A stretch of 64,000 nucleotides of DNA from an uncultured Gammaproteobacteria bacterium (lineage in GTDB: Bacteria > Pseudomonadota > Gammaproteobacteria > JABDGN01): positions 307,870 through 371,869 of the forward strand of contig CAXBIY010000001.1 in NCBI GenBank assembly GCA_963975985.1, in the 5' to 3' direction. Made by a program: the position numbers. Of the stretch, positions 18,001-21,000 are shown one piece after another; within the stretch, counting starts at the first letter, position 1, and the number at the start of each line of letters is the position of its first letter.

Positions 18001-21000
18001 CTTGCACCTTTGCTACCAGCGTAGAAACGAGTATCTAGGGCCCGTCCCTAGTGCCATGCCCGCAGCGGGGATCCTTCCCCTTTTTGGAACAGCCTACCCC
18101 GCTGCATGGCATGTCTTAATGACAAGGTGTAGCCTTTAGGCTACATTAGAGCTATAATAACATGAAGCGAATCAAGTATTACAAAGCCAGTAATGTAAAA
18201 TCGCCATTTTTGAAATGGTTAAATAAGATTAAAGATATAAAGGTGCAGACAGTTCTAATGCGCAATATCAGAAAATTATGTCTGGATGTTGGTGATACCA
18301 AGCGGATTGCCAAAGGAATTTTAGAGTTGCGTATACATATTGGACCAGGTTATCGAGTGTATTATATGGAATATGAAGAAGAAATTATAATTTTATTATT
18401 GGGTGGGGATAAATCATCACAGCAAAAAGATATTGATACTGCAAAGCAATATTATGGTGATATTTTGGAGAAAGGGTATGAGTAAAAAAATCGACGAAAT
18501 CACTGAAGATTACGACCAGTGGCTATATGGAAAATTAAAAAATAAGCGTTATGCCCTCGCCTATCTTGAAGGTGCTTTAAAGGAATATGAAATCGATAAT
18601 AATACCGAAGCCTTTCTTCTCGCTTTTCGCGATATTGCAAAAGCGCAAGGTGGGATAGCTGAATTAGCGAAAAAAACTAATTTAAATCGAGAAAGTTTGT
18701 ATAAAACATTATCGAGCAAAGGTAATCCTAAATTAGAAACCTTGATTACTTTATTAAAGGGCTTGGGTTTTCGTTTTTCACTTAAACTGGCATAAATCAC
18801 GTTAAGCATATGGAAAATATTCCATCGGAGATAACAATGAAAATCGGTATATTAGGTGCTATGGTAGAAGAAATCGGGTTGTTGCAAGCCGATATGCAGC
18901 AAGTTGAAAAACAAACTTAGTTAGAACAATTCACTATTCACAAAGCAAAGGCCTATGTTGGCATGATTGCCAGTGGCGATAAGGTTGAAAAACCTTATAT
19001 TATTATTCGCACCATTTCCGATAAAGCTGATCATTCGGCCCACATCGATTTCATAGCCTTCATAAAAGACATTGCCAGCCATTATTCGCGTGGTATTATT
19101 AAACAGTTATTAAAGTAGGGTGGATAAAAGTTCGGCTGAAAGCCGGACATATCCACCAGGGCTCTATCGTTAACCACTGTTGGTGGATATATCCGCACTT
19201 CGTGCGAATTTTTATCCACCCTACAAAGGAAGCAAAATGAAAAAATTTCCCATCTACCAAATTGATGCGTTTACTAGCGAAGTATTTAAAGGAAATCCTG
19301 CTGCAGTGGTAATCTTAGACCAGTGGCTGCCAGATGAAACCTTATTAAATATTGCCGCAGAAAATAATTTAGCGGAAACAGCCTTTATTATTAAAAATGA
19401 TCCTGTGAATCGCTTACGTTGGTTTACGCCCACGTGTGAAATACCCTTGTGTGGCCACGGTACATTAGCCACAGCTTATGTGCTGTTTAATGAATTGAAT
19501 TATGAGGGTGAGAAAATCACATTTACTAGTTTAAGTGGCTCGCTTAGTGTAAGTAAACAAGATGAAATGTTCATTCTAGATTTCCCAAAGCGCGATTATG
19601 AGCCTACCACAGTGCCAAAAGCGATTATTGATACAATAGGTTTTACTCCGCAACAAGTGATCTCGGACCATCGAGAATATGTTTTGATCTATGATGATGA
19701 AACCATCATTGAGCGCATAGACCCAGACTTCAGCATACTAAAACACCATGATGCGGTTGTTGTAACCGCCGCATCTAAGCAATATGATTTTATTTCACGA
19801 AACTTTCACCCTTCAGCTGGCATCGATGAAGACCCGGTTACTGGCAGTTCACATTGTTTACTCGCCAATTATTGGTCGAAACAACTTGGCAAAACTAAAC
19901 TCCACGCTTACCAAGCATCGGAACGTGGTGGTGAAATGACATGTGAGATTGTTGGTGATAGGGTAAAATTGATAGGAAATGCGGTGAAATTTTTAGAAGG
20001 GTTTTGTTGGTTGGAATAAATAATAATAATTTTCAACAAGTGTAGTGAGTGACAATCATAAGGCAAGTAAAACTATTGTCGGAAATTTCGAAAATTTGTT
20101 GGGTTATTTTCAAAGTTAGATCGAAATGGATTAATGTCGATACCACCACGTCGGGTAAAACGAGCATAGACCGAAAGTTTTTCTGGTGTACATTCGCGCA
20201 TAATATCGGTGAAGATGCGTTCGGCACAGGGCTCGTGGAATTCGTTGTGGTTGCGAAAAGAAATTAAATATTTTAATAAGCTCGCATGGTCAATAGCGTT
20301 GCCACTGTAGCGAATCATGACGCTAGCCCAATCGGGTTGGCGGGTGATTAAGCAGTTGGATTTTAATAGATGTGAGTGTAGGGTTTCTTCAACTGTATGC
20401 TTAGCTGTTTGCAGCAAGCTGGCATCATGTTCATAAATATCAATGCTAACGTCGATATCATCGATGCAGCGGCCGGGCAATTCATTGAAACGCTGCTGCT
20501 GAAAATCGGAGGGTGGAATTAATTTAACGGTAACAGTACTTTGAGTTGCACGTGATAAATCAGCTTGAATTAAGTTTTTGACTGCATCAGCACTGGTAAA
20601 TTTTGTTTGGTTAAATGAATTCAAATAAAGTTTTAACGATTTTGATTCGGTAATATTTTCACTCTCTGCCGGCACATGAAATTTCCCCACCACTATTTGG
20701 GGTTTGCCTTTGCTATTTAGCCAAGAAATTTCATACGCATTCCAAATATCCACACCGTGAAAAGGGAGCTTACTTGTCACGCCCATTGCATCACGATTCT
20801 CTTGTCGTGAAATAGGAAACAACAACGACGCATCGTACTGTTTGTTATAAGTGGAGGTTTTACCGAGTTGAGAATTCTGTAGCACGATTGTCTCCAATGG
20901 ATATTCAAAAAACCCGGCATAGAGCCGGGCTTTGTTGTATAGGATGTGTTACCACAAATTATAATGTTCGTTCTTTTGCGTTTTACCTTTGTCTACCATG

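Follow-up and report, generated by a model that had tools for sequence, protein, structure and literature searches.

Within a 64-kb stretch of DNA from an uncultured marine gammaproteobacterium (hereafter the window), the stop codons of several genes lie inside the tips of a short palindromic repeat, and some reading frames extend upstream through the same sequence. This raises two questions: what the element is, and whether its copies changed the neighbouring proteins, as was held in the original prediction, according to which insertions had rewritten or possibly replaced the last codons of these genes.

The repeat is a two-tiered palindrome with an unpaired GTAG tip

The basic unit of the repeat (type 1) is a 43-nt palindrome composed of GTAG followed by GGTGGATAAAA, a variable hairpin and ATATCCACC. 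A covariance model identified exactly 11 units in the 64-kb window, spread over 19.1-49.5 kb. The head sequence GTAGGGTGGATAAAA occurs in the window 10 times with at most one mismatch; when up to three mismatches are allowed there are 12 matches compared to 1.7 expected, and this number was reached in none of 100 shuffles. All 11 units are intergenic, with only small overlaps of gene ends, the longest noted being nine codons of a MAPEG gene. The GTAG tip is present in 9 of the 11 units and in 74 heads of the window and related loci, and the base preceding it is usually A or T. The density of the family was 11 units per 64 kb in the window and 74 per 299 kb in scaffolds from the same sample.

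Each unit is predicted to fold into a conserved outer stem of 8 bp (GGTGGATA paired with TATCCACC), separated by a small internal loop from an inner hairpin of 7-8 bp, which is variable in sequence and always retains its pairing. In the 11 window units 88.6% of the paired cells were complementary, compared to 29-50% in a control with slid partners. Covariation was found at all eight inner pairs, while the outer stem was conserved. Among 79 aligned copies, 95.2% of the cells were paired and 61 distinct inner hairpins were present. Single units folded as DNA gave energies of -8 to -11 kcal/mol (z = -3.2 to -5.8), with GTAG unpaired in every fold.

The units occur in several arrangements. Three inverted doublets (REPINs) of 109-111 nt, with the GTAG tips pointing outward, are located at 19115-19224 (left arm 19115-19157 on the plus strand, right arm 19182-19224 on the minus strand; covariance scores 71.2 and 71.7 bits), 43472-43582 (64.5 and 74.2 bits) and 44090-44198, between the convergent MAPEG gene and trpC (60.0 and 45.6 bits). 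The RNA fold of the region 19105-19245, containing the first of these, reached -57.3 kcal/mol (z = -7.9). Single units, all on the plus strand, are found at 25622-25664 (66.3 bits), at 30566-30608 (65.4 bits) and, as part of a composite element, at 22549-22591 (63.5 bits). Two further plus-strand units lie in direct orientation between djlA and rpe (49403-49521), at 49403-49445 (55.1 bits), where the head begins with GGAG in place of GTAG, and at 49475-49521 (61.5 bits). Many more inverted doublets were found on the related loci L112-L146. A search against Rfam 15 at the gathering threshold gave no match anywhere in the 64-kb window. Intrinsic (Rho-independent) terminators were considered and rejected: directly downstream of the units the sequence reads AGCGGT, AGGGCT or similar, with no T-run. 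Several units are located inside operons (coxA-cox11, ctaB-sco1).

A REP-flanked RAYT probably belongs to the same genome

A gene for a REP-associated tyrosine transposase (RAYT) was found on the related locus L125 (363-881, minus strand; 172 aa), with the same REPs on both sides. Its product matches Pfam Y1_Tnp (3.3e-10) and aligns over residues 1-162 with E. coli TnpA_REP (4er8; E = 5.6e-45), including the HUH motif (HIH) and the Y...N...H residues of the active site. The window itself encodes no RAYT, Y1_Tnp being found in 0 of its 41 ORFs or predicted genes with Pfam data. The RAYT lies on a separate contig of 3 kb. When 35 Tara loci were compared with the window by BLAST, only REPIN-to-REPIN matches were obtained, and the link between the RAYT and the window's genome therefore rests on co-occurrence and coverage: the two ENA assemblies that contain the trpC of the window also contain this gene, at a coverage of 2.52 versus 2.49. 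On the basis of co-occurrence, coverage and shared REP sequence, the RAYT on this separate contig probably belongs to the genome of the window.

GTAG is needed for RAYT binding and cleavage (PMC3479197, Messing 2012). The units described here were most likely spread by the RAYT, an HUH/Y1 enzyme, with GTAG as the guide tetranucleotide. We gave almost no credence to the alternative that the element is a conventional MITE, i.e. that it arose by deletion from an insertion sequence of the DDE type, has terminal inverted repeats, is flanked by target-site duplications and carries a stop codon in its terminus in the manner of Correia or ERIC elements. Multi-copy, intergenic inverted doublets of ~110 nt with identical outward tips do resemble such terminal inverted repeats. 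However, no target-site or other direct duplication flanks the three doublets or the L125 locus, and in the window and the related scaffolds the doublets are matched in frequency by single units and direct pairs. Moreover, each arm is by itself a hairpin with an unpaired GTAG, and the associated gene is a Y1/HUH RAYT rather than a DDE transposase. We thus consider it highly probable that the element is a GTAG-tagged REP, present singly and as inverted doublets (REPIN/BIME) in this Tara Oceans gammaproteobacterium, which was spread by its RAYT and is packed against gene ends.

The same head together with a TCCACC tail was present, among the matches listed, in Gallionella, Ca. Parabeggiatoa, Sulfurovaceae and another Pseudomonadota MAG; a contig scan with the bare 15-mer head gave mostly chance single matches among those listed. 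A RAYT of Gallionellaceae is 57% identical to the one described here.

Stop codons coincide with repeat tips more often than by chance

Two of the three stop codons named in the original prediction were confirmed to lie in the GTAG head. The mtnN remnant (18963-19118, plus strand), a 51-aa gene called by all pipelines and identified from its ORF and an alignment with 3eei as the C-terminal ~45 residues of an MTA/SAH nucleosidase, ends with TAG 19116-19118, which falls in the head beginning at 19115. The trpC gene, encoding a 264-aa indole-3-glycerol-phosphate synthase (44195-44989, minus strand; ...KELFM), ends with TAG 44195-44197 inside the minus-strand head GTAGGGTGGACAAAA (44198-44184). 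In the third case, the tlpA-like gene for a thiol:disulfide oxidoreductase (22647-23129, minus strand; ...ERYIK), the stop codon TAG 22647-22649 was correctly placed within ...GGAGCCTAC, but the sequence 22549-22650 is a composite and not one copy of the repeat. A fourth case had not been mentioned: the left arm of the 44090-44198 REPIN has a degenerate head and overlaps the last nine codons of the MAPEG gene, whose stop codon (TAG 44114-44116) is located in the loop of the inner hairpin of this arm. When these nine codons are aligned with the degenerate arm, ATAAAAATT and the TAG of the loop coincide, and the C-terminus of the MAPEG protein might be encoded by the repeat.

In most gene-abutting copies the hairpin begins 0-10 nt past the stop codon. 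The unit at 25622 starts 7 nt past the coxA stop codon (TGA 25612-25614), the unit at 30566 one base past that of ctaB (TAA 30562-30564), and the coq7 stop codon (TAA 43468-43470) is one base upstream of the 43472-43582 REPIN, which ends 15 nt ahead of the MAPEG-gene ATG at 43598.

The offset between stop codon and tip was counted in 299 kb of related Tara scaffolds, where 36 heads abut the end of an ORF of at least 100 codons. The TAG of the head served as the stop codon (offset +1 from the G of GTAG) in 6 of these 36 cases, among them the genes for CcmB, RuvB, Mpl, GlpD, ornithine aminotransferase and a PadR-family protein. In another six the stop codon was placed one base before GTAG (offset -4), two were read through to a stop codon at offset +29, and none of the 36 had a stop codon at offsets -3, -5, -6 or -7. 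Under a uniform null the probability is 2e-5 for one such offset and 8e-10 for offsets +1 and -4 jointly. The coincidence of tip TAG and stop codon thus exceeds chance.

The sequences directly 5' of the heads are also non-random: CAAA (11), TAAA (10) and TCTT (11) account for 32 of 74 flanks against 1.25 expected (P about 1e-36), and CT-containing flanks (TCTT, CCCT) are common. This bias could mean that certain target sites are preferred, and not that packing under selection is the sole cause. Sorting of left- and right-arm flanks by the spacer motif after the tail did not cleanly separate the YAAA and TCTT classes.

Packing of the units against gene ends could arise as follows. With intergenic spacers as tiny as those of this genome, the one harmless place for a unit would be behind a stop codon and ahead of the ribosome-binding site that follows, so that surviving copies would pack hard against gene ends. 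Two packings are the commonest: either W-GTAG directly follows TAA or TGA, which places the stop codon one base ahead of GTAG, or GTAG overlaps the gene, with TAG as the stop codon and G completing the last codon. In the remaining frame the coding sequence runs ~29 nt into the repeat, which adds a short repeat-encoded tail. Both the mobility of the units and the order of events at each TAG (native stop codon kept, or stop codon donated by the repeat) are what we infer from these arrangements. By analogy with E. coli, a stable hairpin right at the stop codon is likely to protect the upstream mRNA, and it may slow terminating ribosomes.

The same offsets might instead arise from targeted integration at a stop-like sequence (TAG, or YAAA/TAA-A), with native stop codons and with target choice taking the place of packing, a minority reading to which we give some weight. 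It would account for the sharp peaks at +1 and -4, for the biased CAAA, TAAA and TCTT flanks and for the native-length C-termini seen in every tested case (below); TAG is a common native stop codon (16 of 59 genes), and relatives of the IS200/IS605 family insert beside a fixed target of 4-5 nt (PMC3479197). However, CAAA is as frequent as TAAA, so a stop codon is not what these flanks specifically have in common; TAAT-G and TAGT-G are likewise found among the flanks of the offset -4 cases, and the E. coli RAYT cuts at CT and not at TAG or TAAA (PMC3479197). Furthermore, the spacers that remain between genes once a REPIN is removed are only 12-16 nt long, which already forces the position of the element, and for half of the 74 heads no gene end is adjacent.

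Packing after RAYT-mediated spread remains our preferred explanation. A more speculative extension, which we hold to be rather doubtful, is that the close coupling of tip and stop codon reflects more than a shortage of space: the W-GTAG tip, often preceded by TAAA, would function as a cassette that supplies a stop in two of the three frames, either through preferred stop-proximal integration or through retention of copies whose hairpin, beginning at the stop codon, tunes termination and the decay of the upstream gene's mRNA. If so, the position of a REPIN relative to the stop codon would be under selection as a regulatory trait of a compact marine genome.

The C-termini appear native up to the last codon

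An insertion inside the 3' coding ends would have removed or replaced several C-terminal residues of TrpC, TlpA and MtnN and made the repeat TAG a premature stop codon. The TAG does lie within the repeat tip, and the same terminal residues recur, namely a last Lys (...AAAG|TAG) in TlpA, MtnN, RuvB and GlpD and a last Met (...CATG|TAG) in TrpC and the PadR-family protein, a hint that the repeat can supply the last codon. The final nine MAPEG codons that match the degenerate REP arm would fit such truncation as well, as would RbfA of locus L141, which carries the repeat-encoded tail SRVDKSSTEG; a few proteins, RbfA among them, do bear short tails encoded by the repeat.

The ends of TrpC, TlpA, MtnN and the MAPEG protein nevertheless fit their homologues, with no sign that more than 1-2 residues were lost, and truncation by insertion is accordingly rated as very unlikely. 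The TrpC terminus (...ELFM*) is at the modal end position of 60 homologues. TlpA terminates where homologue P0124 does in the alignment and 0-9 residues short of the others, within the natural range. The 51-aa MtnN remnant aligns with residues 188-225 of the 233-aa chain 3eei (E = 1.7e-4), and from this alignment its stop codon appears to be at the native position, within 1-2 residues of the end of the solved MtnN. The MAPEG protein aligns with its homologues up to its last residues. The claim that insertions rewrote or replaced last codons was therefore unsupported beyond the final codon, the C-termini being essentially intact and ending at the expected position.

Since the G of GTAG forms the third position of the final sense codon, this one base must stem from the repeat; for no other base is this so, although the AA or AT before it might have the same origin. 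Judging from the alignments, these four proteins probably end natively, with at most the last codon affected. A change of 1-2 residues is compatible with the data, since the nearest homologues are distant (62% identity for TrpC, 47% for TlpA). No empty sites or insertion polymorphisms were found among the TrpC and TlpA homologues and the two assemblies carrying the window, which are identical at the REPs.

A CGTC-tagged palindrome adjoins tlpA

The composite element at 22549-22650 consists of the type-1 REP described above and, on the minus strand, a type-2 palindrome (22612-22642). Between the two lies a spacer, AGGGCTCTA..., which is shared with the 19115 REPIN. Its right end consists of GAGCCTAC after the palindrome, and the last 6 nt, GTAGGC on the minus strand, hold the tlpA TAG.

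The type-2 family has five copies in the window. The others are an inverted pair (CGTCATCCCGCGGCTTGACCGCGGGATCCAG) at 63733-63810 and single copies at 53822-53852 and 60602-60632, both on the minus strand. In the alignment of the five copies conservation begins at CGTC, which is followed by a 9-bp stem with compensatory changes and a 5-nt loop. The sequence GTAGGCTC, which contains the tlpA TAG, is absent from the other four copies. The tlpA TAG thus lies outside the conserved part of the CGTC-tagged family, and it is this family, not the GTAG family, that adjoins the tlpA stop codon. No transposase associated with the CGTC-tagged family was found.

Repeat-encoded N-terminal extensions are annotation artefacts

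Read on its reverse strand, the GTAG tip is free of stop codons in all three frames and the tail of the unit supplies GTG, TTG or ATG starts, so that longest-ORF logic and some gene callers add spurious extensions of the ...NFYPPY... type to downstream genes. Such extensions had been predicted at four places, and they were observed at three of them. For the phzF-family gene (19237-20019, plus strand), the stretch 19180-19236 encodes the spurious repeat-derived sequence LVDISALRANFYPPYKGSK. Residue 2 of PDB 1s7j aligns with residue 22 of the long ORF, and the true start is ATG 19237, preceded by AAGGAAG. For the MAPEG gene, the extension from 43523/43538 is encoded by the right arm of the 43472-43582 REPIN. 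The spurious antisense ORF 25412-25666 (minus strand) takes both its GTG start and its NFYPPY residues from the unit at 25622-25664; this 84-aa ORF had no Pfam match and appears in none of the Tara, NCBI, ENA and Logan gene catalogues. In the fourth case, sco1, the extension exists but lacks NFYPPY: it starts at GTG 30571, provided by the unit at 30566-30608, runs through the element in sense orientation and yields VDKNSRIARTYSP. The correct start codon of sco1 is ATG 30652, preceded by AGGAG.

The expectation that automated annotation would systematically mis-set these starts held for one catalogue. The Tara gene catalogue contains an extended PhzF of 278 aa (VDISALRANFYPPY...), versus 260 aa in NCBI and ENA, and an extended MAPEG protein of 192 aa (MVDMSGFQPNFYPPY...), whereas NCBI, ENA and Logan give the short, correct starts for both. 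Sco1 is correct (218 aa) in all sources.

These results are of mainly practical value. A TAG located inside a GTAG tip is a genuine stop codon and no indication of a truncated protein. N-terminal stretches of the ...NFYPPY... or VDK... type are artefacts, found in one public catalogue (Tara). In this genome and in others with GTAG-REPs, gene starts and ends beside the repeats should be interpreted in the light of the repeat. A further gain is a well-defined pair of REP and RAYT from a marine lineage not in culture, and its 79 aligned copies could be used in studies of REPIN population dynamics.

Comparison with known repeat systems

The known picture of GTAG-REP elements is unchanged by the present work. 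Passages of Di Nocera 2013 (PMC3733652) already report both TAG tips serving as stop codons and misannotated REP-encoded N-termini. With its unpaired 5' GTAG and imperfect palindrome, the family described here resembles the GTAG-REP superfamily and the REPIN/BIME elements with their RAYTs, and like these it is extragenic and multi-copy, forms inverted doublets and is accompanied by a REP-flanked RAYT. Among the REPs listed for Haemophilus and Enterobacter sakazakii are some that begin with GTAGGGTGG... (PMC2817692, Nunvar 2010), and the window head is nearly identical to the heads published for gammaproteobacteria, namely GTAGGGTGGG... of these two and GTAGG..GGATAAG of E. coli.

The CGTC tag and stem-loop of the type-2 family correspond to those of the CGTC-tagged palindromes (Di Nocera 2013; similar to Rickettsia RPE). 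Passages of that paper (PMC3733652) describe the class as mostly alphaproteobacterial; in contrast, the present copies occur in a gammaproteobacterium, alongside a GTAG family.

Correia, ERIC and Coxiella MITEs (PMC5896051) are, like the window repeats, short, non-autonomous and intergenic, and can abut the ends of coding sequences and change the proteins predicted from them. Here, however, there is neither a target-site duplication nor a DDE parent, and the elements are single hairpins with a guide tetranucleotide.

A passage of PMC12306157 cites work in which E. coli REPs no more than 15 nt from the stop codon stall ribosomes. As in the E. coli REPs that act as attenuators or mRNA stabilisers, the hairpin is located near the stop codon in the window, and a comparable effect may be expected by extrapolation from that species. 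Compared to the known GTAG-REPs, the window unit is longer (43 nt) and two-tiered, combining a conserved outer stem with 61 inner hairpin variants in 79 copies; its host is a new uncultured marine gammaproteobacterium from the Tara Oceans collection, and the distribution of stop-to-tip distances, with its two peaks at +1 and -4, was measured here.

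Organization of the GTAG-tagged REP units

The spacer between the mtnN remnant and phzF contains two inverted copies of a 43-nt GTAG-tagged palindromic unit (REP), at 19115–19224. The left unit, on the plus strand, is GTAGGGTGGATAAAA-GTTCGGCTGAAAGCCGGAC-ATATCCACC, and the right unit, read on the minus strand, is GTAGGGTGGATAAAA-ATTCGCACGAAGTGCGGAT-ATATCCACC. The 15-nt head, which starts with GTAG, occurs 10 times in the window at up to one mismatch; at up to three mismatches there were 12 matches (1.7 expected), and 12 or more were obtained in none of 100 shuffles. A covariance model trained on the REP copies themselves identified exactly 11 units in the window, every one within 19.1–49.5 kb, and none in the type VI secretion cluster (1–18 kb) or beyond 50 kb. 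All copies are intergenic. Two further inverted pairs (REPINs) are located between coq7 and the MAPEG gene (43472–43582) and between the convergent MAPEG gene and trpC (44090–44198). Single units were found between coxA and cox11 (25622–25664), between ctaB and sco1 (30566–30608) and, as part of a composite, between tlpA and cytochrome c (22549–22591), while two direct units (49403–49445 and 49475–49521) lie between djlA and rpe.

In the folded unit, GTAG is unpaired and is followed by a stem of GGTGGATA with TATCCACC, and then by an inner hairpin of 7–8 bp. Paired cells amounted to 88.6% in the 11 window copies, compared with 31–40% when the partner columns were slid, and to 95.2% (29–50% when slid) in the 79 copies of the window and related scaffolds combined. 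Among the window copies the outer stem is conserved and the inner pairs have changed on both sides (8 of 8); the 79 copies carry 61 distinct inner hairpins. A whole inverted pair can also form one long hairpin (−57.3 kcal/mol, z = −7.9).

A second, CGTC-tagged repeat at tlpA

The stop of tlpA (22647..23129, minus strand) had been assigned to the end of another copy of the same element. The terminal TAG does lie inside GTAGGC, but the right half of this supposed copy is another repeat, CGTCATCCCGCGACTTGATCGCGGGATCCAG, with four additional copies in the window. In the five-copy alignment, conservation extends only from CGTC onward, the upstream GTAGGCTC being present in the tlpA copy alone. The repeat is a 31-nt palindrome (CGTCATCCCGCGGCTTGACCGCGGGATCCAG) located at 22612–22642, 53822–53852, 60602–60632 and 63780–63810 on the minus strand and at 63733–63763 on the plus strand. 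Its stem shows compensatory changes, and there is a single inverted pair, at 63733–63810. It matches the CGTC-tagged class described by Di Nocera et al. (PMC3733652), which is reported mainly from alphaproteobacteria. The distance between GTAGGC and the left head, 102 nt, approaches the 109–111-nt span of true pairs; the hexamer might be what is left of a right arm after replacement of its interior.

Heptamer arrays (AGGATTA/AGGATTG and TTAGGGC/TTAGGTT) at 7300–7334, at 26264–26293 with 26357–26387, and at 39807–39837 with 39876–39906 appear to be a further kind of intergenic repeat, unrelated to the other two. Two begin right at TAG stops (of a tssE-like gene and cox11), and two inverted array pairs each surround a small central hairpin. 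Repetition was also seen in coding DNA: ORF 10208–13339 of the type VI secretion cluster, in a region of elevated GC content (0.497 at 8001–12000, about 0.42 elsewhere), contains a 30-nt tandem repeat at 10233–10290, and two adjacent paralogues of ~790 aa (55538–57898 and 58028–60439; repeat families D1 and D3–D5), 70–85% identical over long stretches, look like a tandem duplication.

Related scaffolds and the associated transposase

A metagenome scan with a pattern of the head, 17–21 nt and ATATCCACC yielded 35 loci (299 kb) from a single Tara Oceans sample, which carry 74 further REP units. One of them, L125, encodes (363–881, minus strand) a 172-aa protein with a Pfam Y1_Tnp match, which aligned with E. 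coli TnpA_REP (PDB 4er8) over residues 1–162 (E = 5.6e-45), including the HUH motif (HIH) and the Tyr, Asn and His active-site residues. Three REPs lie just past the 3′ end of the gene, and a headless and a full REP past its 5′ end, an arrangement typical of REP-associated tyrosine transposases (RAYTs). The gene is on a contig separate from the window; since the exact protein is present in both ENA assemblies that hold the window's trpC, and since coverage in the second matches (2.52 for the RAYT contig, 2.49 for the window contig), it very probably belongs to the same genome.

Among the matches listed, the head GTAGGGTGGATAAAA with a CCACC tail, mostly in inverted pairs, was also found in distant lineages of Beta- and Gammaproteobacteria and Campylobacterota: Gallionella (L005, L023, L075, L077, L089 and L093), Ca. 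Parabeggiatoa (L087) and Sulfurovaceae (L107), and in addition at locus L071. Together with a Gallionellaceae RAYT 57% identical to that of L125, these matches suggest either broad distribution of a RAYT/REP lineage or horizontal transfer.

Stop codons and C-termini

As originally noted, the TAG of a GTAG head ends both the mtnN-remnant ORF (18963..19118) and trpC (44195..44989, minus strand). The accompanying proposal, that C-terminal residues had been lost or replaced, was not supported by alignments of TrpC, TlpA, MtnN and the MAPEG protein, all of which end at native positions, with no visible truncation or extension. TrpC ends in ...KLKELFM*, and most of 60 homologues likewise stop one residue past the conserved ELF. 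TlpA (...QLERYIK*) shares its terminal alignment column with homologue P0124 and ends 0–9 residues before the others. The 51-aa MtnN remnant aligned to residues 188–225 of a 233-aa solved MtnN, so that its end corresponds to about residue 232, and the match of the MAPEG protein to its homologues extends into its last residues.

The G of GTAG, at the third position of the last sense codon, must come from the repeat; recurring terminal Lys (AAG|TAG) and Met (ATG|TAG) residues hint that the last codon as a whole may sometimes do so as well. Because the homologues are at most 62% (TrpC) and 47% (TlpA) identical and there is no empty site, the sequences still allow that one or two C-terminal residues may have changed.

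The last nine MAPEG codons (44090–44116; TTT GTT GTG ATA AAA ATT ATA ATG TAG) align in register with a degenerate REP arm, the gene stop being the loop TAG of the inner hairpin. This gene end could be repeat-derived coding sequence, or the REP arm could have been overwritten by the gene end. At locus L141 (~2046–2101, minus strand), RbfA crosses a REP tip in the third frame and acquires a repeat-encoded C-terminal tail, SRVDKSSTEG. TAG ends 16 of the 59 ORFs in the whole window (27%, high for a gammaproteobacterium), and about 3–5 of these stops touch repeats.

Two toxin-antitoxin pairs were noted beside these genes. A HigB/Gp49-like toxin and HI1420-type antitoxin (18162–18795) lie directly upstream of the mtnN remnant, and their insertion may have destroyed mtnN; the remnant presumably also has an internal in-frame deletion of ~40 residues relative to E. 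coli MtnN. A BrnT-like toxin and CopG-like antitoxin (~46556–47140; L001 7864–8434) interrupt the trp operon between trpE and trpG.

N-terminal extensions and gene calls

On the reverse strand the GTAG tip is stop-free in every frame, and the unit tail is a source of GTG/TTG/ATG starts; open frames thus run from the unit into downstream genes. The predicted NFYPPY extensions are encoded by the ORFs at 19180, 43523 and 25412–25666 (minus strand), but the one at 30571 is a reading in the sense direction and encodes VDKNSRIARTYSP. The true starts are ATG 19237 for phzF (AAGGAAG upstream; residue 2 of PDB 1s7j aligns to residue 22 of the long ORF), ATG 30652 for sco1 (AGGAG 7 nt upstream) and ATG 43598 for the MAPEG gene.

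Gene calls were compared by exact-sequence look-up in NCBI, ENA, Logan and a Tara gene catalogue. The expected systematic mis-setting of starts was confined to the Tara catalogue, where a 278-aa PhzF and a 192-aa MAPEG protein both include the NFYPPY stretch; NCBI, ENA and Logan hold the short forms, and sco1 is called correctly in all sources. The 84-aa antisense ORF is called by none of the four, and all four annotate the 51-aa mtnN remnant as a gene.

Position of the GTAG tip relative to stop codons

Offsets were counted from the G of GTAG to the first base of the stop codon. In the window and related scaffolds, 36 of 74 heads abut a gene end (ORF of at least 100 codons, offset −60 to +40). 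The TAG of GTAG is the stop (+1) at six of these heads, and at another six the stop lies one base ahead of GTAG (−4). Two genes run 29 nt into the unit (+29), and the remaining 22 stops are scattered from −8 to −57, with none of the 36 at −3, −5, −6 or −7. With offsets distributed uniformly under the null, the count at one offset has P = 2e-5, and the +1 and −4 counts jointly have P = 8e-10. The genes ending at the head TAG (CcmB, RuvB, Mpl, GlpD, ornithine aminotransferase and a PadR-family gene) are ordinary housekeeping genes.

We propose that the RAYT spreads REP units, which would persist only at harmless sites. Without the REPIN, the spacer is 12 nt between the mtnN remnant and phzF and 16 nt between coq7 and the MAPEG gene, mostly ribosome-binding site. 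The sole free position would be immediately 3′ of the stop, leaving two tightest packings: W-GTAG abutting TAA or TGA, or an overlap between GTAG and the gene in which TAG is also the stop. The base 5′ of GTAG is nearly always A or T, and the 4-nt flanks CAAA, TAAA and TCTT together account for 32 of 74 heads (1.25 expected); a target preference for these flanks, instead of lack of room, is thus a live alternative. The two peaks in the stop-to-tip distribution might be the result of targeting or of a function rather than of limited space. If E. coli is a guide, where REPs less than about 15 nt from a stop codon stall ribosomes (cited in PMC12306157), a hairpin beginning at the stop would be expected to protect upstream mRNA and may slow terminating ribosomes.

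A further arrangement was seen at locus L119 (2936–8566), where paralogous genes for secreted repeat proteins of ~200 aa, at least nine in number and one of them disrupted, lie in tandem. Behind five of them a REP is found at constant spacing (stop offset −12 to −20), which indicates that it was amplified along with the gene. The unit at 3585–3672 has a ~32-nt insertion in its inner hairpin (GTTCGAGCGGCTTGTCGCGCCGTAGCTTTAGCGTAGGCGGATAGCTCGGAC) that looks like a hairpin nested within a hairpin.

Comparison with known REP systems

Judged from sequence, the window element has every testable defining feature of a REP/RAYT system. Published gammaproteobacterial REPs start as the window REPs do: those of Haemophilus and E. 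sakazakii begin GTAGGGTGGG..., and those of E. coli are GTAGG..GGATAAG (PMC2817692). Binding and cleavage by RAYTs need the tetranucleotide GTAG (PMC3479197). Di Nocera et al. (PMC3733652) have already reported TAG tips that act as stop codons, and state that REPs within N-terminal coding regions are probably extragenic and misannotated. What was seen at stops and starts is therefore a property already known, correctly observed again in another member of a known family; the single, mildly novel point is the two-peaked distribution of stop-to-tip distances.
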